Assembly: GCA_046075565.1 (NCBI GenBank)
Contig: JBJTQJ010000003.1
Span: 1 to 39,778, forward strand
Reading direction: 5' to 3'
Length of the DNA: 39,778 bases
Source of the DNA: Verrucomicrobiales bacterium
Lineage (GTDB): Bacteria > Verrucomicrobiota > Verrucomicrobiia > Verrucomicrobiales > SLCJ01
Positions 21,448 through 33,589 of this stretch are shown here, piece by piece. How positions within the stretch are numbered: position 1 is the stretch's first letter; each line of letters begins with the position of its first letter. A program made the position numbers and the translations under genes. Below the pieces are notes generated by a model. It saw nothing but the letters and a program-made list of their open reading frames with translations. It was not told the origin of the DNA and searched no databases.

Positions 21448-21552
21448 CCGACCTCCGACCTCAGGTTTTCAGTCTTCTGGCCTCTGGTCTCAACTCTCAA
21501 GTCTTGTGTCTTCTTGCCCCGACAGGGTCGGGGGTGTCCTTGAGCGAAGCGA
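21448..21552. repeat. Degenerate heptamer array plus CCCCGAC-N3-GTCGGGG hairpin and GAGCGAAGCGA motif
   Basis: cctccga cctcagg ttttcag tcttctg gcctctg gtctcaa ctctcaa gtcttgt gtcttct, then ccccgacagggtcgggg at 21517-21533. Confidence 0.75.
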
Positions 21553-23457: not shown

Positions 23458-24788
23458 GCTTTTTTACCGGAATGCAGGCGTGTCAAAGCAGCAGCTGCGG
23501 CGGATACGTTACTCTCTTTTTGAAAATGTCTCTTGCCAAATTCGGCGGCTCTCTGTCCCATCCTGCGAAGCAAGTCCCCATCCAAAGCCGCGAGCAGTGC
23601 TGCCATCAAAGCCTGGTCGTTTCCCGGAGCCACCACCCATCCGGCCCCGCTCTCCCGCACCCAGGCCGCCATACTCGAATCCTCCCCCCCGATGAAAACC
23701 ACCGGTCGCCCCGCCGCGAAGATTCCCTGCAACTTGCTCGGCAACATCGTGCCCGTCCACGCGGGATCCAGCGAGGCCACATGGAGATCGGCGCTCCGCA
23801 AATGGGCCGCCAAATCTTCCTCCGCCACATAATCATGCAGTTCGATCGGCAGATCCGGGTGGTCCTTTAAAAATGCCTCTACCTCCGCGCGCCGGCGGCC
23901 CTTGCCAAAAAACACAAACCGGAATTTGCCCGGGGAGGAAGCAGAAAGCTCGACGATGGCTGCGAACAACTCTCCGAAGCGATGGCCGAGGCCCATGTTT
24001 CCGGAATACATGACCACCACTTCCCCCTCTCGCCAGCCCCGGGCCGCACGCAAGTCCTTTAGCTCCGCTTCCGCCACCTCTCGCTCCGCCCCACTCCAGA
24101 GAGGAACATGCTGGAGGTTGCCGGCGTTCAGCGAAGCCCCTGATCCGAGCACCCGACGCAGTCGATCCGCCATACAAGGCCCGAGCGTGAGGATCATCCC
24201 GCAACGCTTCCCGCCCCAACCCCACCGCGCCAGCCAGGCCAGCATCCGCTGAAGAAGCCCTCCCTCCTGTAACATCCCATGGGATACCATCACATCCGGA
24301 TAAATATCCATCACCCAATGGGCATGGGTCCCTCCACGCAACCTCGACATCATCCTCGCCAGCACCGACAAATACGGCGGCGTCGTCAATGCCACCATCC
24401 GCTCCGGAGCCGGGCGCATGGTGCCAAGCTTCCAGGCAACACCGAGATAGTAAGACAAATAGTCCAGTAGCTTCCCCACGAAACTCACCCGTCCAAACCT
24501 CGTCGCCCCGATGCGGAGGAGCCTTGCATGCCCCGACAAAGTCGGGGGTCCGTGGCCCAGCGCCTGCGGCGCGTCCTTGGTCCGTAGTCCTTGGTCCGTG
24601 GTCATTGAACCCCGTCTTCTGTCTTCTGTCTCGCGGTCTTCTGTCTTCGATCCAGCATACCCTCCCTCGGCACAAATCACCGTCACCTCATGCCCTTGGG
24701 CAACCAACTCCCGGGCCACCGCCTCGAGCATCACGCCCGTCGGCGCCGCGTCCGGCGGATAATACTGATTGAGAAAAACGATACGCAT
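23454..24788 (-). CDS. GT4 glycosyltransferase (WcaI-like) with an in-frame repeat-derived insertion
   Basis: MRIVFLNQYYPPDAAPTG, TTPP, WVMDIYPD, MYSGNMGLGH and PSKLQG motifs; insertion at about 24531-24650. Confidence 0.92.
   Translation of the reverse strand: MRIVFLNQYYPPDAAPTGVMLEAVARELVAQGHEVTVICAEGGYAGSKTEDRETEDRRRGSMTTDQGLRTKDAPQALGHGPPTLSGHARLLRIGATRFGRVSFVGKLLDYLSYYLGVAWKLGTMRPAPERMVALTTPPYLSVLARMMSRLRGGTHAHWVMDIYPDVMVSHGMLQEGGLLQRMLAWLARWGWGGKRCGMILTLGPCMADRLRRVLGSGASLNAGNLQHVPLWSGAEREVAEAELKDLRAARGWREGEVVVMYSGNMGLGHRFGELFAAIVELSASSPGKFRFVFFGKGRRRAEVEAFLKDHPDLPIELHDYVAEEDLAAHLRSADLHVASLDPAWTGTMLPSKLQGIFAAGRPVVFIGGEDSSMAAWVRESGAGWVVAPGNDQALMAALLAALDGDLLRRMGQRAAEFGKRHFQKESNVSAAAAALTRLHSGKKA
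24531..24650. repeat. Intragenic heptamer arrays and CCCCGACAAAGTCGGGG hairpin
   Basis: tccttgg tccgtag tccttgg tccgtgg (24574-24601); gtcttct-type units (24614-24649); hairpin at 24531-24547. Confidence 0.88.
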
Positions 24789-25682: not shown

Positions 25683-25896
25683 TTGCGTCGTTGTGAGCTT
25701 CGGGTGGCTCGCTGGTTGTCGGCTTTGCCAGATTTTTTATACTCCGGATTTTGCTGTCGCGCAATTGCAGTTTCGCCGCGTCGAGAACATACTCCCCGAC
25801 GAGCGAGCAAGCGCAACACCGCCACGACGGTAAAGAACAAGCCGCAGTAGAACGGGTCTGAGATATCCGGGCTAGGAAGGGCAGGGCCTTATCATC

Positions 25897-25927
25897 ACAC
25901 GATGCCCGCAGGGCAGGGCCTCATCAT
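25897..25927 (+). repeat. 31-bp perfect direct repeat copy 1 (partial third copy at 25878-25896)
   Basis: acacgatgcccgcagggcagggcctcatcat, identical at 27119-27149. Confidence 0.93.
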
Positions 25928-25948
25928 CAGCGCGAATAGCTTGAGGAA

Positions 25949-26774: not shown

Positions 26775-27124
26775 AGAAGATTTGCACCATGAAGAGGTGA
26801 AGATAATGAAGGCCGGGAACCATGAATTCAACCACAGATTGCACGGAGAGCACGGATAGACAGGGAAGAACCGTGTCCTTTCCAAAACTATTCATTATTC
26901 CGTGGTTCTGGCTCCCACGCCTCCCTTCACGCTCTTCATGCCCTTCATGGTGAACCCTCATGGTTCAGAAACGAGAAGATTTTCACCATGAAGTAGTGAA
27001 GGAAATGAAGAAAGTGAACCCTGAATTCAACCACAGATAACTCGGATGGGCACCCTACGTCGCCCTTCGGGCTGTGAAGGGCAGGCGGATAAGAGAAGAA
27101 CTGAAAAACCACGAATGGACACGA
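26775..27124. repeat. Compound array of short-period repeats: 65-bp direct repeat (26775-26839, 26974-27038) with nested inverted arms
   Basis: CACCATGAAG..GTGAAG..ATGAAG (26785) pairs with CTTCAC..CTTCATG..CTTCATGGTG (to 26952); inner AACCACAGAT..CACGGA arms pair with TCCGTGGTT; AACCACGAATGGACAC at 27107. Confidence 0.88.
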
Positions 27125-27149
27125 TGCCCGCAGGGCAGGGCCTCATCAT
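27119..27149 (+). repeat. 31-bp perfect direct repeat copy 2
   Basis: Identical to 25897-25927. Confidence 0.93.
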
Positions 27150-27212
27150 GCCTTGAAAAAGACGACATGATGGGTGTTTGATTTGCAGGATTGGCCGAAG
27201 GCCAACTTAGAT

Positions 27213-27307
27213 ACCTGTAGCGGCGTGTCTATGACCGTCGGTAGCTTTCCGGCAATCGACGCTCCACCTCCAAACAAGTCCGACGGTCACAGACCGACGC
27301 TACAGGT
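27213..27307. repeat. REPIN-like inverted pair of GTAG-type REP sequences
   Basis: acctGTAGcggcgtgtctatgaccgtcgg ... ccgacggtcacagaccgacgCTACaggt. Confidence 0.85.
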
Positions 27308-27375
27308 TTTTCAAATGGGCTGCCGCCCAGCCGCTTCTCCATCTTTTTGTCGAAATCCTTGAAATTAATTCTGAC

Positions 27376-27515
27376 ATGAGGAAAGCAGGAAGGCAGGAAA
27401 TGGATTGAGGATCAGGGAGATCCGAAGCAAGCATCCATCACCCTATTGGTTAGGACCTGGGTCTTCCTTTTGTCCTGTAATTTAAAGGATTTTCCTGCTT
27501 TCCTGCCTTCCTCAT
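27376..27515. repeat. Inverted 8-mer arrays (AGGAARGC) enclosing about 90 bp
   Basis: atgaggaaagcaggaaggcaggaaa (27376-27400) versus the reverse complement of 27491-27515; 23/25 match. Confidence 0.9.
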
Positions 27516-27566
27516 TTTCCCTTCCAGGGTAAGACCTTGCGCGGTGCTTCGCGCTCACCAGGGGCG

Positions 27567-27767
27567 TCACCTTCTCGCCACATGACAGCAATGGATCGAT
27601 GAAGTCCTCCTCCGTGCAAAACCCGAGAGCAGGGTCAAATCGGCATCACGGGTCATGCGGGGTTCCCCCCAGCGCTGGACAGCGAGCCCACCAATGAAAC
27701 AAAACCGCCAGCCCCGTTGTTCACAGAACCGCTGCAAATCGAGAGCTGCGGCGAAGATGGAATTCAT
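27567..27767 (-). pseudogene. Truncated nucleotidyltransferase (AbiEii/DUF6036-like) N-terminus
   Basis: FCFIGGLAVQRWGEPRMTRDADL motif; after SGF the plausible continuation (TEEDFIDPLLS) is in another frame and then runs into repeat DNA. Confidence 0.75.
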
Positions 27768-27961
27768 TGCCGGCTACCGTAAAGGATACTCTGGAGCTCG
27801 ATGAGGCCAAGGGAACACTCCTTCTCCGCCGGATACTGGGCATCGACAGACATCGCCAGGAGCCTGTCCGCGGCAACAAGCGCGTCGGCCTCGGTCATAT
27901 CCCGCAACTCGGCACGCCACTGTAGATCCAGGGCGATGACGGAATCTTGATCAATCATCAT
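27764..27961 (-). CDS. Small hypothetical protein translationally coupled to the nucleotidyltransferase (possible antitoxin partner)
   Basis: 65 aa; ATGA overlap; preceded by TTGACG-N17-CAGTTT-N6-ATG. Confidence 0.65.
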   Translation of the reverse strand: MMIDQDSVIALDLQWRAELRDMTEADALVAADRLLAMSVDAQYPAEKECSLGLIELQSILYGSRQ

Positions 27962-28033
27962 GCGTGCAAACTGCCCCCGGCGACCGACCGCGTCAAGACG
28001 AGCGAAAGAGCTTCAGCGCCGCTGTGGAGGAGA

Positions 28034-28214
28034 GGTTGTCTGTTGTCAGTTGTCTGTTCCTGCCCCGACAAAGTCGGAGTTGTCGGTGGGTCGCATCGTG
28101 GCGCTTCGCGCCCACATCAAGCTCATTGGACCCCCGTAAATCGGGGCTGCGCAACATCCAACAGACAACTCCCCTCAAGCTCTACGGACAACCGACAACA
28201 GACAACAGACAACC
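28034..28214. repeat. Inverted heptamer arrays (NGTTGTC / GACAACN) with embedded CCCCGACAAAGTCGG hairpin
   Basis: ggttgtc tgttgtc agttgtc (28034-28054) versus gacaacc gacaaca gacaaca gacaacc (28187-28214). Confidence 0.9.
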
Positions 28215-28230
28215 CTCTCCTCATCATCTT

Positions 28231-28887
28231 CTACCAACTCCACACCCCATACACGAGCAGATTGTGCAAAGCCGCCAGGCGCTCGCGCCGCCAGCTACCC
28301 TTGTCTCACGGATTCATGGTCTCCGGCTTCGGCGCAAACGACACCACAAATTCCCGCCCCGGCTGGTACTTCCGGAAAATGGCCAACGACCTCGGGACAT
28401 GAAACCAGTTTGTGACCAGTATCACCCGCTTCGCCCCGATTTTATCCAGCATCGGTATGGTGAAACGCGCGTTCTCTACCGTCGAGGTCGCCGCCTTCTC
28501 ATGGAGCACGCGCTCCTTCGGTATCCCATGCTTCTCCAAATATCCAACGATATGGTTCTCGTCTCCCGTCACAACCACCGGGATCCCGGGATAGCGCTTC
28601 GCCATCTCCACCCCCCGGGCCCAGCGCACCTGATCTCCACCCCCCAGAATCACCAGCGCGTCAGCATCGGCGAAAAGTGGGCCTTGCACGGGATCCGGCC
28701 ATCCACCCCACCAGACCCATGAGGCCAGCGAGGCTATTAGCACAGTTGCGATGCCTAAAGCGCGGCAAAGAAGTCTATTTCTGCGAAGGAGAAACCAGCA
28801 GGTGTGCAAGCGGGCCAGCGGTGACACGAAAATTTTGGGAAAGAGCAGAGGGTTTCCCTCACCATCTGTTGGTTGTTTCAACCCCAT
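28231..28887 (-). pseudogene. YdcF/ElyC (DUF218) family protein, paralog 1, with in-frame TGA at 28306-28308
   Basis: DALVILGGG, ATSTVENA and ILVTNWFHVPRS motifs; the frame continues past TGA as DKGSWRRERLAALHNLLVYGVWSW-TAG, matching paralog 2; start uncertain. Confidence 0.8.
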
Positions 28888-29116
28888 AGCACGACATCGG
28901 CACGGTTAAGGATAATCGCAATAAATTTTCGGACGACGCTAGAGATCAAAATTTGAGCGCCCTGTAGCCGACTAATAGCAGATGCCTTCCTTCCTGCATC
29001 CGATTTCGCTGAACTGCTTTGTCAAAAACAAGGCGCGCCTCCAGGGCGCGCCAATGCAAGGCCTAACAATGTCCAGCAAGAAAGCCCCTGCCTTGGAGCA
29101 CTACAAGATTGTGCAT

Positions 29117-30904
29117 TCAGATTACTTCTCCAGGCCTTAGTTTTACCCGCTTTCGCCACTTCTCCGGGAAGTCATCGCTGTGGCGGTCGATGACGTGACG
29201 GCCAAGCACCAACACATCCATGTCGGTGCGCAGGAAACACGATATCGCCTCCTTCGGAATCCGCACCACCGGCTCATTTTCATTGAGCGAGGTGTTCAGG
29301 ATGATCGGCACGCCGGTCTTCTCGTAAAACTTCGTGATGAGAGCGTGATAGCGCGGGTTGGTCCGTTTCGAGACACTCTGCAGACGTCCGCTGCCATCCA
29401 CGTGCGTTACCGCCGGGATCAACGCGTGTTTCTCCTTTTTGATCGGAAAGACCTTTTCCATATACGGGGTCGGCTCGTCGATCTCAAACCATTCGCCCAC
29501 CTGTTCCTCCAGGATGCTGGGGGCGAACGGACGGAATTTCTCGCGGAACTTGATCCGGAGGTTGATGATGTCGCGCATGTCGGTGCGACGCGGGTCGGCT
29601 ATGAGCGAGCGATTCCCCAACGCCCGCGCGCCAAACTCCATTTTCCCCTGGAACCAGCCAACTACCTTCCCTTCGAGCAGCTTTTCGACGGTGCGGCTGA
29701 GCAACATGTCCTCATCCAGGGTTTCGCACGGCAACCCAGCCTCCCGGATGGAGGCCAAACACTCATCATTGCCTGATTCGCATCCCCAATAGGCATGATC
29801 CTGGACAAATCCGCGCGAGCCTCCCAACACCTTGTTCCAGACGTGGAAAGCCGCACCGAACGATGTGCCGTTGTCAGCGGCACCTGCCGGGATATAGACG
29901 TTCTGGAACGGCGTGCGGCTCGTGATCTTGCCATTCGCCACTGAGTTCATCGCCACCCCCCCGGTCATGCACAGATTCGGGCACTTTGTCTTGTCGTGCA
30001 GCCGGTTCAGCAAATGGAGGATGATCTCTTCGGTTACCACCTGAAGGGACTTCGCGATATTGTCATGCCGCTGCGTCATTTCCTCCCCCTTGAGCCTCAT
30101 CGGCCCCAAATCGTCAACCAGCTTCCGGCTGTGGAACGGCTCCACCACTGGCGCCCCGTCGTTCCAGCTCATCTTTATCCCCTGCTTGTGGTGGGTGAAA
30201 TAATCCAGGTTCAGCTCGAACACATCCCCTTTCGGCCGAATGAGCTTGCGGAAAAAGTCTGCGAACTCCGGTTCGCCATAGGGAGCGAGCCCCATCACCT
30301 TGTATTCGTCGCCGGAATATGGGAACCCGAGATACATCGTGATCGCGCTGTAGAGGAACCCGATCGAATGCGGGAACCAGACGCGGTTGAATTCCCGCCA
30401 GTTTGTGCCTTTCGCATGTGCGGTCAGCGTGCTGGTAAAGTCGCCCATGCCATCCACGGAAAGGACCGCTGCCTCATCAAACGGCGAAATCAGGAATCCG
30501 GCCGCCACATGCGTCTGGTGGTGCTCGATCCGGTGGAACCTAGCTTTAAGGGCTTGGGGAGGGCATTGCACCGCCAAGGCGAATTGTTCCTCCAGACCCA
30601 ACGTCTTGCCCTGCCGCTTCAAGCGATCGACGATGGCCCGTAGCGATGGTCTGTTCTTCGCGACAAAAGCGATCCGCTTGCCAATGTTCGCCCGCGGATC
30701 GAAAGAAATCGCCACATGGTCGAGAGCCTCCGGCTTGACTCCGCCCTCGGCAAGACACCAGCGAATCGACTCCGCGGGAAACCCGGCCCAGTGCTTGATC
30801 CGGTTGAAGCGTTCCTCCTCGACAGCGGCAACGAGCTGGCCGTCAATTACAAGCGCCGCCGAAGCGTCACCGTGATAAGCGTTGATTCCAAGAATTGTGG
30901 TCAT
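29117..30904 (-). CDS. Carbamoyltransferase (NodU/CmcH family)
   Basis: ILGINAYHGDASAAL, EEERFNRIKH, EHHQTH, DGMGD, EYKVMGLAPYG, GGVAMNS, EFGARALGNRS, THVDGSGR and NTSLN motifs. Confidence 0.96.
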   Translation of the reverse strand: MTTILGINAYHGDASAALVIDGQLVAAVEEERFNRIKHWAGFPAESIRWCLAEGGVKPEALDHVAISFDPRANIGKRIAFVAKNRPSLRAIVDRLKRQGKTLGLEEQFALAVQCPPQALKARFHRIEHHQTHVAAGFLISPFDEAAVLSVDGMGDFTSTLTAHAKGTNWREFNRVWFPHSIGFLYSAITMYLGFPYSGDEYKVMGLAPYGEPEFADFFRKLIRPKGDVFELNLDYFTHHKQGIKMSWNDGAPVVEPFHSRKLVDDLGPMRLKGEEMTQRHDNIAKSLQVVTEEIILHLLNRLHDKTKCPNLCMTGGVAMNSVANGKITSRTPFQNVYIPAGAADNGTSFGAAFHVWNKVLGGSRGFVQDHAYWGCESGNDECLASIREAGLPCETLDEDMLLSRTVEKLLEGKVVGWFQGKMEFGARALGNRSLIADPRRTDMRDIINLRIKFREKFRPFAPSILEEQVGEWFEIDEPTPYMEKVFPIKKEKHALIPAVTHVDGSGRLQSVSKRTNPRYHALITKFYEKTGVPIILNTSLNENEPVVRIPKEAISCFLRTDMDVLVLGRHVIDRHSDDFPEKWRKRVKLRPGEVI

Positions 30905-31029
30905 GAGAGTTTGAATGGATTCTGAGTATTAACTTTTGAGATAGTAGATGAGATATGAATTGGGCTACGCCGGGCTTTTCGGGAGAAAAGCCGAACAACA
31001 AGAGCGTTTGCGGGGCATTTGCTTACCAC

Positions 31030-31608
31030 CTACCAGCTAAACATGCCGTAGACAAACAGATTATGAACCGCCGCGAGCCGCTCTCTCCTCAACGCCGCTC
31101 TACTCGACTTGTCATACGGATCAGGCCCTGTGGAAAACGACACGACAAAATCCCGACCGGGCTGGCACTTCCTGAATATGGCCAATGATCTCGGGGCATG
31201 ATACCAGTTCGTCACCAGAATCACCCGTTTTGCACCGATCCGCTCCAACACCGGTTTAGTGAAGAGCGCATTCTCCATAGTCGAGGTCGCCTCGTTCTCG
31301 TGCAGGACCCGCTCCTTCGGCACCCCATGCTTGTATAGATATCCGACGAGATGATTCTCATCTCCCGTCACTATCAACGGGAGCGCGGGATAGCGCCGTG
31401 CCATCTCCAAGGCCTGGTCCCAGCGGGCATAATCCCCTCCCCCCAGAATGACCACCGCGTCCGCATCGGCGAAAAGAGGCTCCTGCTCGGGTTCCGGCCA
31501 TCCTCCCCACCAGACCCAGGAGGCAAGCAAAGCGAGCAATAGCACGGACACCCCGAGGCTCAAGACAAGGAATCGGTGTTTGCGTAGATATTTCCGACAA
31601 GCTTGCAC
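31030..31608 (-). CDS. YdcF/ElyC (DUF218) family protein, paralog 2
   Basis: N-terminal TM, DAVVILGGG, ATSTMENA, ILVTNWYHAPRS and RRERLA; likely GTG start at 31608 just after an upstream TAA. Confidence 0.88.
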   Translation of the reverse strand: MQACRKYLRKHRFLVLSLGVSVLLLALLASWVWWGGWPEPEQEPLFADADAVVILGGGDYARWDQALEMARRYPALPLIVTGDENHLVGYLYKHGVPKERVLHENEATSTMENALFTKPVLERIGAKRVILVTNWYHAPRSLAIFRKCQPGRDFVVSFSTGPDPYDKSSRAALRRERLAAVHNLFVYGMFSW

Positions 31609-31609
31609 C

Positions 31610-31768
31610 TTAATCGCGGGTGACAAAGGATTTCGTGACACTCGGATCAATATACCGCCGAACCCGATTGGTGTTGCGCTCGAAAAGCCACCACATTCCG
31701 GCGGAAAGAACGAGCATGGCAACGCCTAGACCAACGAACCAAAAATAGCCGCCGGCCGCAGCGGGGAA
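31610..31768 (-). pseudogene. C-terminal remnant of an acyltransferase-3 family membrane protein
   Basis: FPAAAGGYFWFVGLGVAMLVLSAGMWWLFERNTNRVRRYI..TAA; WWLFER resembles the AT3 terminal motif; no N-terminus. Confidence 0.6.
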
Positions 31769-32157
31769 CTGTCGCCGATCTCGATCGGTTTCGTGATCAA
31801 ATCAAATCCAACCTCGCGGAAATCATGGCTGCCCGTGCAGAGGAAGGCCCGCTGGGAGATGCACACGTTGTTGCCAATCCGCACCTGATCCAGACTCAGG
31901 ATCAGCACTTCATCTCCAATCCAAACGTGATTCCCGATCTCCACTTTCCACGGAAAGGTGATATTCACCCGGCTTCGGATCACCACTCCGTTTCCCACCT
32001 TCGCTCCGAAAACACGCAGTGCCGCCACCTTGAGGACCGACGGCAAAGGAAACCAGGGCGCGAAAAGCAGCGACCGGCAGAGCCACCACAGCAACTCCTT
32101 CCAACGCGGCGCCCCGCGCGAAAACCCGGAATTGTTAAACTTGGATAGATCAATCAT
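31726..32157 (-). pseudogene. wcaF: WcaF-like hexapeptide-repeat acetyltransferase, C-terminally truncated
   Basis: DLSKFNNSGFSRG, FGAKVG.GV.I, FPWKVEIGNHVWIG, SQRAFLCTGSHD; similarity stops at KPIEIGD before the final hexapeptide turns. Confidence 0.8.
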
Positions 32158-32180
32158 TGAAGCGAATGACTTGAATATTA

Positions 32181-32398
32181 ACCACAAATGGACACGAATT
32201 CACACGAATAGTCGTGAACAATAAACCAGCCTCTCCGTTCAGCTTTCCGAGAGCCTTAGGCGCCCCATTGTTTGAACGCTTTCCCGTCGATTCGTTCCAT
32301 TCTTCGTGATCATTGGTGTCCATTCGTGGTCATCATCATGGTTCAAGGACTTCTCTTCCATCCGTGCTTATCTGTGCCCATCCGTGGTTAACCTTCAT
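32181..32398. repeat. Inverted 10-mer arrays (ACCAC.AATGGACAC / GTGTCCATTCGTGGT) plus an ATCCGTG..ATCTGTG..ATCCGTGGTT arm
   Basis: 32181-32209 pairs with 32303-32330; 32360-32389 has no local partner. Confidence 0.88.
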
Positions 32399-32401
32399 GA
32401 T

Positions 32402-33589
32402 TCACGGCAGCATCACGCACCCAGGCCACTGGCCTTTGCCAATCATGCATTCATAAACATCCAGAAACTGTCTTGCCACGCCCGTCCATGCGTAGTCCCG
32501 CTGCATCCAACGTCTCCCTCGATCGCCCATTTCCCCGAGTTGTTCCGGTCGAAGCGATGTGGCTTCGCGCAATGCGACGGCCAACTCCGCCGCATTTGTC
32601 GGCGGCCACCACCCACACTGGTGCTCCAACAGTCCCGGCCACGGCGCTCCTTGAGTGGTGATCACCGGCAGACCGTGCGCCAGGGCTTCGGCGATGGCCA
32701 TGCCGAAATTCTCCGTATGGCTCGGAGCAATCAAAAGATCGGCCTCCTGATAGGCTTTTTCGAGCTGCTCACCCTCCATGGGCCCTGCGAACTCAAACTC
32801 CGCTTCAAGTCCGGCCTTCCTGACCAAGTCCACGACCTCCACCCGGTGCCCGGCTTCGTCAGGCCCGACGATCCTCATTTTCCAGCCCTCCGGCCGCACC
32901 CGGGCCCATGCCTCGACCAAAAGGGGAAGCCCTTTCACCGGATAGATCCGGCCCACGAAGAGCGCGGTGCGGTGTTTCGGTGCTTCGGTGTTTCGGTGGC
33001 GCTGCGCAGTCGATGATCCGGTGTGAGAGGTACGGTCGTCGCATCTCTCCTCAACGGTTCGATGTTCAACGTTGAATGTTCGATGTTTGATGTTCGTTCC
33101 GCCCTCTCCTTCTTCCTGAACTCCGCCCTCTGTCCACTGACCTCTGTCTTCCGGGATCTCCACTCCCCACGGGATCATCGCGATCGGCGGCCTGAGCCCC
33201 AGCTTACGCAGGTTCATTGCCTCGCGCTCCGAGGTGGCGTGCAGAGCAGCCGCCATGTCGAGCCACCATTTCTGATAGATGTGCCATGCCAGTTTCTTCT
33301 TCAGCGGCTTGTGAGCCAGAGCCCACGGCTCCAGCATGCCATGCACGGTCACCAGACAAGGCACTCCCCGCTTTCTCCATTCAAAAAACCGGCGCATCAG
33401 CGCCGGAGACCAGATCCCGTGGATATGGGCCAGATCCGGGTTCGCCGCCAGCGACTTCGGCCCGTCCGCAGCGCAGTGGCGGATAACCTCCACTCCCTGC
33501 GCCCCGAGAGCCGTGATCAACCCCAATGTCGCCGCCTCAATGCCTCCCGTCCGTTGCACGGGCAATAGTTCTTCAAATACCACTTTCAT
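32402..33589 (-). CDS. GT4 glycosyltransferase with about 60 aa repeat-derived linker insertion
   Basis: HIHGIW, HGMLEPWAL, ALFVGRIYPVKG and PSHTENFGMAIAEALAHG motifs; insertion at about 32966-33152. Confidence 0.93.
   Translation of the reverse strand: MKVVFEELLPVQRTGGIEAATLGLITALGAQGVEVIRHCAADGPKSLAANPDLAHIHGIWSPALMRRFFEWRKRGVPCLVTVHGMLEPWALAHKPLKKKLAWHIYQKWWLDMAAALHATSEREAMNLRKLGLRPPIAMIPWGVEIPEDRGQWTEGGVQEEGEGGTNIKHRTFNVEHRTVEERCDDRTSHTGSSTAQRHRNTEAPKHRTALFVGRIYPVKGLPLLVEAWARVRPEGWKMRIVGPDEAGHRVEVVDLVRKAGLEAEFEFAGPMEGEQLEKAYQEADLLIAPSHTENFGMAIAEALAHGLPVITTQGAPWPGLLEHQCGWWPPTNAAELAVALREATSLRPEQLGEMGDRGRRWMQRDYAWTGVARQFLDVYECMIGKGQWPGCVMLP
32966..33152. repeat. Intragenic 8-mer and 7-mer arrays
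   Basis: cggtgttt cggtgctt cggtgttt (32970-32993); acggttc gatgttc aacgttg aatgttc gatgttt gatgttc (33054-33095); cctctgt ccactga cctctgt (33127-33147). Confidence 0.9.

Follow-up and report, generated by a model that had tools for sequence, protein, structure and literature searches.

Gene-less hairpin elements with tandem-array arms in a polysaccharide locus of a Verrucomicrobiales bacterium: probable miniature relatives of small selfish gene cassettes

Inverted arrays of short tandem units occupy several gaps between the genes of a polysaccharide locus in a Verrucomicrobiales bacterium (GenBank assembly GCA_046075565.1, contig JBJTQJ010000003.1). Here we analyse these brackets in a stretch of 39,778 nucleotides (nt), referred to as the window, which is contig C3 of a 3.9-Mb, 129-contig genome (label G000), and compare them with 40 relatives of the same order, none of them from the same genus. 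The brackets are probably hairpin elements that lack genes and are miniature, non-autonomous relatives of small selfish cassettes of two kinds. Type 1 (modules A, B and C) has the arms of GxxExxY / PDDEXK_3 nuclease cassettes without the gene, and the arms of type 2 (the GTTGTCT and AGGAAAGC hairpins) are arrays of 7-8-nt units, similar in build to those of the heptamer-armed cassettes of four-helix-bundle proteins. An earlier interpretation, made from the letters of the window without database searches (the sequence-only reading), had listed the arm positions and strings, all of which are present, and had proposed that the arms are ends of small mobile cassettes that insert into each other, or long RNA stems that loop cargo out of the operon mRNA.

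The four local inverted array pairs with periods of 7 to 10 described in that reading were recovered by repeat search, Tandem Repeats Finder and nhmmer, and lie far above chance expectation.

26775-26960, no strand assigned: B-type hairpin element, complete but decayed, with several shorter inverted arm pairs at 26785 / 26952 (repeat search; RNA fold z -6.06)
27376-27515, no strand assigned: single-copy hairpin with octamer (AGGAAAGC) arms of 25 nt (27376-27400 / 27491-27515), 92% complementary, around a 90-nt interior (repeat search; fold z -6.42)
28034-28214, no strand assigned: single-copy hairpin with heptamer (GTTGTCT) arms of 25 nt (28034-28058 / 28190-28214), 92% complementary and 131 nt apart (repeat search; fold z -5.95)
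32176-32330, minus strand: divergent but complete C-type (CACGAAT) mini-element (nhmmer E ~1e-13), its 32181 / 32330 pair recovered by nhmmer on both strands

Tandem Repeats Finder assigned periods of 7, 8 and 9 to the arms; the CACGAAT arms have a period of 10. In the B-type element the left arm begins with ATGAAG/GTGAAG units and continues with AACCACAGAT..CACGGAG..CACGGAT, and the right arm runs from TCCGTGGTT into CTTCAC/CTTCAT units; the left arm recurs nearby as a direct repeat (26775-26847 versus 26974-27046, 73 nt, 82% identity). The C-type element is wedged between a GT4 glycosyltransferase gene and a hexapeptide-transferase gene, with AAGTC on each side (one base of slack). The minus strand is the coding strand for all genes neighbouring the elements, and RNA folding on this strand, a check suggested by the sequence-only reading, gave z values of -6.4, -6.0, -6.1 and -4.4 for the four elements, with 0 of 200 dinucleotide shuffles folding as well in each case.

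The CACGAAT mini-elements form a dispersed family. A simple array detector run on the whole genome returned 471 short-period arrays, where a locally shuffled version of the genome gave 98, and for 31 arrays an inverted partner lay no more than 350 nt off, in most cases at 70-125 nt (an uncurated list, some entries of which lie in coding repeats). A family search that started from one CACGAAT element and ran through three nhmmer rounds gave 100 rows, corresponding to about 54 loci on many contigs and in both orientations, 38 of the 54 being near full length (~150 nt). Eighteen aligned copies have a mean column identity of 78%, nearly invariant arms of ~38 nt at both ends, termini of the form CCTWGAAA...TTTCWAGG and a core that is an imperfect palindrome. 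The arm arrays of type 1 are built of 9-10-nt units with the core CAC[A/G][A/G]AT. Among 74 elements, 52 lie between crude open reading frames (ORFs; 91% of the genome), in same-strand (31), convergent (14) or divergent (7) gaps; the remainder lie inside crude ORFs, some of which are spurious (18), or at contig ends (4). Same-strand placements reach stop and start codons. Another hairpin element, with GTCCTTG units in its arms, was found at C101:5987-6128 and, in reverse orientation, at C94:934-1104; one copy has ~3.5 and 5 units in its arms and the other 8 and 3, so array length is plastic.

Evidence for mobility comes from the flanks of these copies. An exact 5-nt direct repeat stands just outside the termini in 10 of the 38 near-full mini-elements, compared with 25 of 1406 (1.8%) when the left flank of one element is set against the right flank of another (binomial P ~1e-9; ends taken from profile coordinates with one base of slack). 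The duplicated 5-mers are GTTAG, TTAAA, ATCAT, GTTCA, ATAAA, ATTAT, TTTAC, AATAA and TTTAT, together with the AAGTC of the window's own element; the target is A/T-rich, and six of the ten duplications sit at exactly identical boundary positions. Two automatic boundary finders, which were too strict or misplaced the ends, gave 2 of 21 and 2 of 38. Because the 5-nt direct repeats at the ends exceed the control, the mini-elements insert as DNA and duplicate 5 nt of their target, in agreement with the earlier proposal that the arms are ends of small mobile elements.

The arms also connect the window to genes. Those at 32180-32330 are 96% identical to both arms of a GxxExxY cassette (C124:69185-69214 and 69582-69609); the two stretches lie 367 nt apart and enclose the GxxExxY gene C124:69226 (PF13366; TIGR04256 E 1e-34). 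The B and C arms of the window match cassette arms on C124 and C82. By eye, inverted short-period arrays stand on both sides of seven of the nine PF13366 or PF05635 genes in this genome. By an inverted-repeat score, 21 of 29 PF13366 loci in the relatives exceed all 56 shifted control windows, the arms having periods of 8-10 and CACNNAN units (CACAGAT, CACGGAT, CACGGAG, CACGAAA); for PF05635 the figure is 17 of 29 loci above all 55 controls, 16 of those 17 with a period of 7. No other gene families are repeatedly enclosed by such arms, here or in the relatives, and the only full-length partners with these arms are those that carry a PD-(D/E)XK protein of 115-130 amino acids. Since the same arms enclose GxxExxY genes in the genome and in its relatives, the A, B and C arms of the window are, by sequence, of the nuclease-cassette type. 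The heptamer and octamer hairpins resemble in architecture the cassettes of four-helix-bundle proteins (PF05635) of the 23S rRNA intervening sequence (IVS) type.

The sequence-only reading had asked what lies between paired arms genome-wide and across the phylum: PF13366 genes do, in this genome and in the order, but the elements of the window are gene-less and no GxxExxY gene lies between their arms. We considered a mini-element core derived from the interior of a cassette and rejected it; the mini-element consensus has only its arms in common with the full cassette. We know of no function for GxxExxY proteins or four-helix-bundle 'IVS' proteins, both very large families, and found no literature that links GxxExxY genes to such arms or to gene-less array hairpins. 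Two PF05635 genes of the genome have conspicuous surroundings. The gene at C73:37303-37614 has GAAG/CTTC-rich inverted flanks and lies inside a frame that resembles a type I methyltransferase (hsdM-like), directly after the DPACGSGG motif, with an open frame of 398 amino acids running through; the gene at C15:4607-5366 has ~17 GAACATT units upstream and ~30 AATGTTC/GACGTTC units downstream.

The arm arrays would then be recognition sites for the machinery that moves the elements, and the candidate mover is the cassette's own PD-(D/E)XK nuclease, which would act in trans; to the operon transcript the elements would merely add long hairpins. In a more tentative extension, which we regard as possible rather than probable, the 115-130-amino-acid GxxExxY PD-(D/E)XK protein would be the trans-acting enzyme of an unnamed class of mobile elements. 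It would read tandem CACNNAT units, several subunits binding along one helix face with the 10-nt period, and would mobilise the gene-less hairpins as well as the cassette that encodes it, with 5-nt duplications left behind, in a RAYT/REPIN-like relation (REP-associated tyrosine transposases and paired repetitive extragenic palindromic, REP, sequences) with a restriction-enzyme fold.

Several observations weigh against descent of the window elements from such cassettes, or against their mobility. In 28 of the 38 mini-elements there is no exact 5-mer repeat, and inspection by eye showed no duplication on the two sides of the full GxxExxY cassette C124:69226 or at the ends of the octamer and heptamer hairpins. 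The latter two have no arm sequence in common with any cargo-bearing cassette of the genome, and blast found no further copy of either in the genome. An ungapped scorer passed only four of the eight own-genome cassettes given to it. In the relative G008, 18 arm matches stand against only one PF13366 gene, the arms of which are CACAGAT rather than CACGAAT. A tblastn search with nine own-genome cargo proteins detected no cargo remnant in the interiors of the window elements (best E 0.23), and descent from cassettes must therefore be read from the arms. A comparison of filled with empty sites, suggested by the sequence-only reading, showed no such polymorphism for the window's own elements in contigs from four metagenome DNA runs of one freshwater study. 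One contig of these data (run X1) has the same AGGAAAGC arms (21-nt sides), but where the window has the 93-nt interior 27399-27493 it has 33 different letters; it may represent another organism or another copy, its sides being too short to decide.

Nesting was observed on a smaller scale. The family alignment contains filled and empty copies of short inserts at fixed places in array units, and the window has one copy of a 33-nt insert and three of a shorter one (25884-25927 and 27125-27148).

27052-27084, plus strand: 33-nt micro-hairpin insert (ACCCTACG..GAAGGGCAG) inside a B array, 4 mismatches to the 33-mer
27125-27148, plus strand: ~24-nt micro-hairpin insert (TGCCCGCAGGGCAGGGCCTCATCA) within a CACGAAT unit, between CACGA and AT
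25870-25935, plus strand: C-type arm remnant with two micro-insert copies, directly after the PIN gene

Of 14 pattern matches to the 33-nt hairpin, 10 lie inside CACAGAT/CACGGAT/CACGAAT arrays, where the hairpin occupies the spacer that follows a unit, in at least three different spacer contexts. The 33-mer has ten copies with at most three mismatches in G000 (four exact) and none in the 40 relatives; a reversed control also gave 0. The hairpins of ~22-24 nt, TGGCGAAGCCAGGGCCTYATCA and TGCCCGMAGGGCAGGGCCTYATCA, are two stem versions that differ by paired changes, and 10 of their 17 pattern matches fall between CACGA and AT of the unit. Because filled and empty array units coexist in the family alignment, the claim that elements insert into each other is supported at the scale of 21-33-nt hairpins; in addition, the window and C59 each have a C element next to an orphan B arm. 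A 31-nt stretch consisting of an array unit and a micro-insert occurs at 25897-25927 and 27119-27149, 100% identical and in direct orientation. Together they flank 1222 nt containing the PIN/antitoxin pair and a single hairpin element, and they have two common changes not seen in the C22 and C90 copies, which suggests a local duplication or integration by recombination. The 131-nt interior of the heptamer hairpin 28034-28214 consists of small GC-rich hairpins, one of which, CCCCGACAAAGTCGGAG, has 12 pattern matches in the genome. The small hairpin CCCCGACARRGTCGGRG is found at 28064-28080, 24532-24548 and 21518-21534, often directly beside heptamer arrays; six of its 12 pattern matches in the genome are on contig C101.

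The most conspicuous arrangement in the window is a mirrored order of arms, A-B-C and C'-B'-A', over ~5.2 kb. The left strings are CACCATGAAG (26984-26993), AACCACAGAT (27029-27038) and AACCACGAATGGACAC (27107-27122), and the right strings GTGTCCATTCGTGGT (32316-32330), ATCCGTG..ATCTGTG..ATCCGTGGTT (32360-32389) and CTTCATG (32393-32399).

26974-27124, plus strand: left half, composed of a B-type left arm (A and B modules) and, after it, the first part of a C-type (CACGAAT) left arm, with no right partner nearby
32355-32400, minus strand: orphan B-type arm, made of ATCCGTG/ATCTGTG units and CTTCATGATTCAC, directly at the stop codon of the GT4 gene

Read on the coding strand, the orphan B arm (32400-32355) and the complete C element (32330-32176) both precede the hexapeptide-transferase gene, and a B arm of opposite orientation with a truncated C arm follows at 27124-26974. 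The sequence-only reading took this arrangement for one outer bracket, in which the distant arms are true partners and a single B-type cassette or RNA stem moves or loops out the ~5.2 kb between them (27125-32300). The mirrored order of the three modules is real, in both halves the B array is followed by AAGAGAAG and next by a C-type left arm, a B-left arm (32400-32355) and a B-right arm (27090-27029) lie on the coding strand, and in the minus-strand RNA G.U allows B units to pair with C units. The order holds at motif level only, however. The two halves have no mutual match (blastn-short, E<=0.01) and each is absent from the 25 best genomic matches of the other: the left half is closest to C80, C98, C23 and 26775-26847, not to 32296-32420, and the orphan arm to the right arms of the GxxExxY cassettes C82:84643-84679 and C124 (C124:69582). 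In a gapped comparison of the left half with 14 family arms the right half ranks ninth. By this measure of sequence, the halves resemble each other no more than any two family members do. C' is paired locally with 32181, the genes in between are ordinary ones (carbamoyltransferase, DUF218 and hexapeptide-transferase), and a B arm followed by a C element recurs at C59:36842-37040, so that part of the order is found elsewhere, although without a distant partner. Contigs of the metagenome runs showed no clean joint on the window; the 5-kb 'skips' 27124->32180/32303 have sides of 20 nt only and therefore represent other family copies. As the halves are not mutual best matches, C' has its partner nearby and the interior genes are ordinary, the mirror is probably a coincidental bracket made by two family members in opposite orientation, and a single cassette or stem of 5.2 kb is highly improbable.

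If the hairpins are separate elements, they could still be kept for a function in RNA, as long stems of the minus-strand transcript that are cut by RNase III or stabilise segments. The predicted stems are strong, many elements stand between same-strand genes, and for the Coxiella IVS, with its heptamer stem, excision by RNase III has been shown by experiment (PMC4990558). The arms themselves speak for another level of recognition. In 41 cargo-bearing cassettes, read on the cargo sense strand, the arms contain 1229 Watson-Crick pairs, 27 G.U, 58 A.C and 80 other mismatches, and an excess of A.C over G.U is the opposite of the bias expected from a selected sense RNA stem. None of 18 consensus pairs has a compensatory double change (the arms hardly vary, which makes this count neutral on structure), Rfam gave no match at gathering scores on the window and none at E<=1 on nine element loci, and elements occur in both orientations and between convergent genes. 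CACGAAT arms of 30-35 nt are 90-97% identical in eight other genomes of the order with their interiors unmatched (26 arm matches in G034 and 18 in G008), and the two arms lack complementarity in their inner 3-nt spacers. The mismatch bias, the conserved arms, the non-complementary spacers and the 5-nt duplications together point to DNA as the level at which the arm units are recognised by their sequence. By the folding models the hairpins may also have effects as RNA in the operon transcript, but we think it unlikely that such a role is what maintains the elements. Recognition on DNA might also mean that the arrays are sites to which a host regulator or nucleoid protein binds so as to control or fold the polysaccharide locus, which would suit the period of ~10 nt, the conserved 7-mer with variable 3-nt spacers that do not pair, and the much better conservation of arms than of interiors across families. 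There is a precedent in Geobacter metallireducens, in which 24, 21 and 8 opposite-strand site pairs of 3-5 tandem 7-9-mers at variable distance were interpreted as binding sites of IHF/HU-type global regulators (PMC2700814). Target-site duplications, however, indicate insertion and not evolution of sites in place; the elements also lie between convergent genes and inside reading frames, the unit sequence differs for each heptamer hairpin, and the arms are tightly tied to two small cargo gene families. We therefore consider host regulator sites rather improbable.

The elements could finally be classical MITEs (miniature transposable elements with inverted repeats) of a conventional DDE transposase, with GxxExxY genes as passengers. 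MITEs and other long palindromic repeats (Correia/NEMIS, ERIC, RPE) are likewise ~150 nt long, have terminal inverted repeats that form long hairpins and no coding capacity, occur as many dispersed, mostly intergenic copies and leave target-site duplications, 5 nt long in the present case. They differ in that the arms here are tandem 7-10-nt arrays, and in that no larger element with these ends and a DDE transposase was found. Between C21 arms that lie 1.9 kb apart, checked by eye for an autonomous element, there is no transposase-like ORF; the ORFs seen there are ATPase-like and ACT-domain-like. A MITE is expected to have a cognate autonomous element, and here the same ends enclose GxxExxY, which is not a known transposase; that only PF13366 and PF05635 are repeatedly enclosed also speaks against passengers of this kind, and makes the explanation quite improbable. 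Gene-less relatives of the nuclease and four-helix-bundle cassettes remain the preferred reading, and the elements may be described as MITE-like repeats of a variant kind, in which the arms are arrays and the candidate partner is a nuclease; their mechanism is inferred.

Among known systems, the nearest mechanistic model by analogy is that of REPINs and RAYTs, including the GTAG-tagged REPs. A RAYT is a Y1 (HUH) transposase that acts on single-stranded hairpins and is not known to duplicate its target. The 5-nt duplications found here, and a candidate enzyme of another fold, set the present elements apart. The REPIN/RAYT system combines multi-copy hairpin doublets with one or a few protein genes flanked by the same repeat (PMC3116915, PMC3733652), a relation similar to the one proposed between mini-elements and GxxExxY cassettes. 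GTAG-tagged REPs are recorded from Verrucomicrobia (PMC3733652), and the window contains a separate family of this kind.

27188-27332, no strand assigned: REPIN-like palindrome, a GTAG-tagged REP doublet for which blast gave 27 rows on 14 contigs

This doublet has matches in the relative G002. Of the 11 Y1_Tnp matches in the genome, none has a copy of the 27188-27332 repeat within 1.5 kb.

The analogy with 23S rRNA IVS drawn by the sequence-only reading is apt in architecture, in that inverted short-period arrays enclose PF05635 and PF13366 genes. In Coxiella burnetii the 23S IVS forms a 28-bp stem from terminal inverted repeats, contains an S23p ORF, and has two or three tandem GACAGAT heptamers in the stem region, in strain-variable number (PMC4990558). 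A stem of inverted repeats with tandem heptamers corresponds to the GTTGTCT arrays of 28034-28214, and the PF05635 (S23p) gene in the interior to the inverted period-7 arrays at PF05635 loci of the relatives. Unlike the IVS, the window elements lie between protein genes, with no rRNA in the window and no PF05635 ORF or remnant, and the multi-copy ones have 9-10-nt units tied to the other cargo family. The sequence-only reading also put the system forward as a candidate undescribed one, which holds only in part, since paired inverted 7-9-mer arrays have been reported in G. metallireducens; the class TCTCCGTS listed there is the reverse complement of the CACGGAG-type unit of the relatives, and the available part of that account (PMC2700814) mentions neither cargo genes nor target duplication. 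The micro-inserts have a parallel as well. In Nostocales, Elhai et al. in 2008 reportedly described small dispersed repeats (SDR) that lie inside other repeats and were recognised via filled versus empty copies; the phylum and the sequences differ from those here, where the target is a fixed position of the array unit.

The polysaccharide locus that hosts the elements encodes, by domain annotation of the window genes, two GT4 glycosyltransferases, an AT3-SGNH acyltransferase, a carbamoyltransferase and two DUF218 paralogs, and also contains a hexapeptide-transferase match (weak), a PIN toxin gene and an AbiEii fragment (weak). In metagenome relatives, too, the carbamoyltransferase gene adjoins glycosyltransferase genes; the best of them, at 85%, 84% and 81% protein identity, do not preserve the order of the genes next to the gaps. 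The DUF218 genes (28336-28729 and 31135-31528) flank the carbamoyltransferase gene in direct orientation and are 80% identical over 394 nt of DNA; they are a local gene duplication within the locus. Arrays also occur inside both glycosyltransferase genes.

32970-33096, minus strand: two non-complementary arrays, periods 8 and 7, in frame in the GT4 gene (Tandem Repeats Finder)
24573-24648, minus strand: two heptamer arrays (GTCCTTG, GTCTTCT), in frame in the second glycosyltransferase gene (Tandem Repeats Finder)

In neither gene are the two arrays complementary to each other. Homologs compared for the two GT4 glycosyltransferases have 45%, 36% and 52% identity: L088 and L075 lack ~46-47 residues exactly at the GT4 arrays (window 32950-33100), and L071 is shorter and unalignable at the arrays of the second gene (window 24560-24650), where ~20-30 residues are absent. 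From these alignments the in-frame arrays look like insertions of array DNA into loop or linker regions. RPE insertions resemble such array stretches read in frame inside the two genes.

The 5-nt duplications, the arms common with nuclease cassettes and the constancy of these arms across the order make the gene-less hairpins a testable transposition system with a named candidate enzyme. For annotation, such arrays in operon gaps or in frame within genes are probably to be taken as insertions and not as regulatory signals; paired short-period arrays have previously been read as regulator sites.

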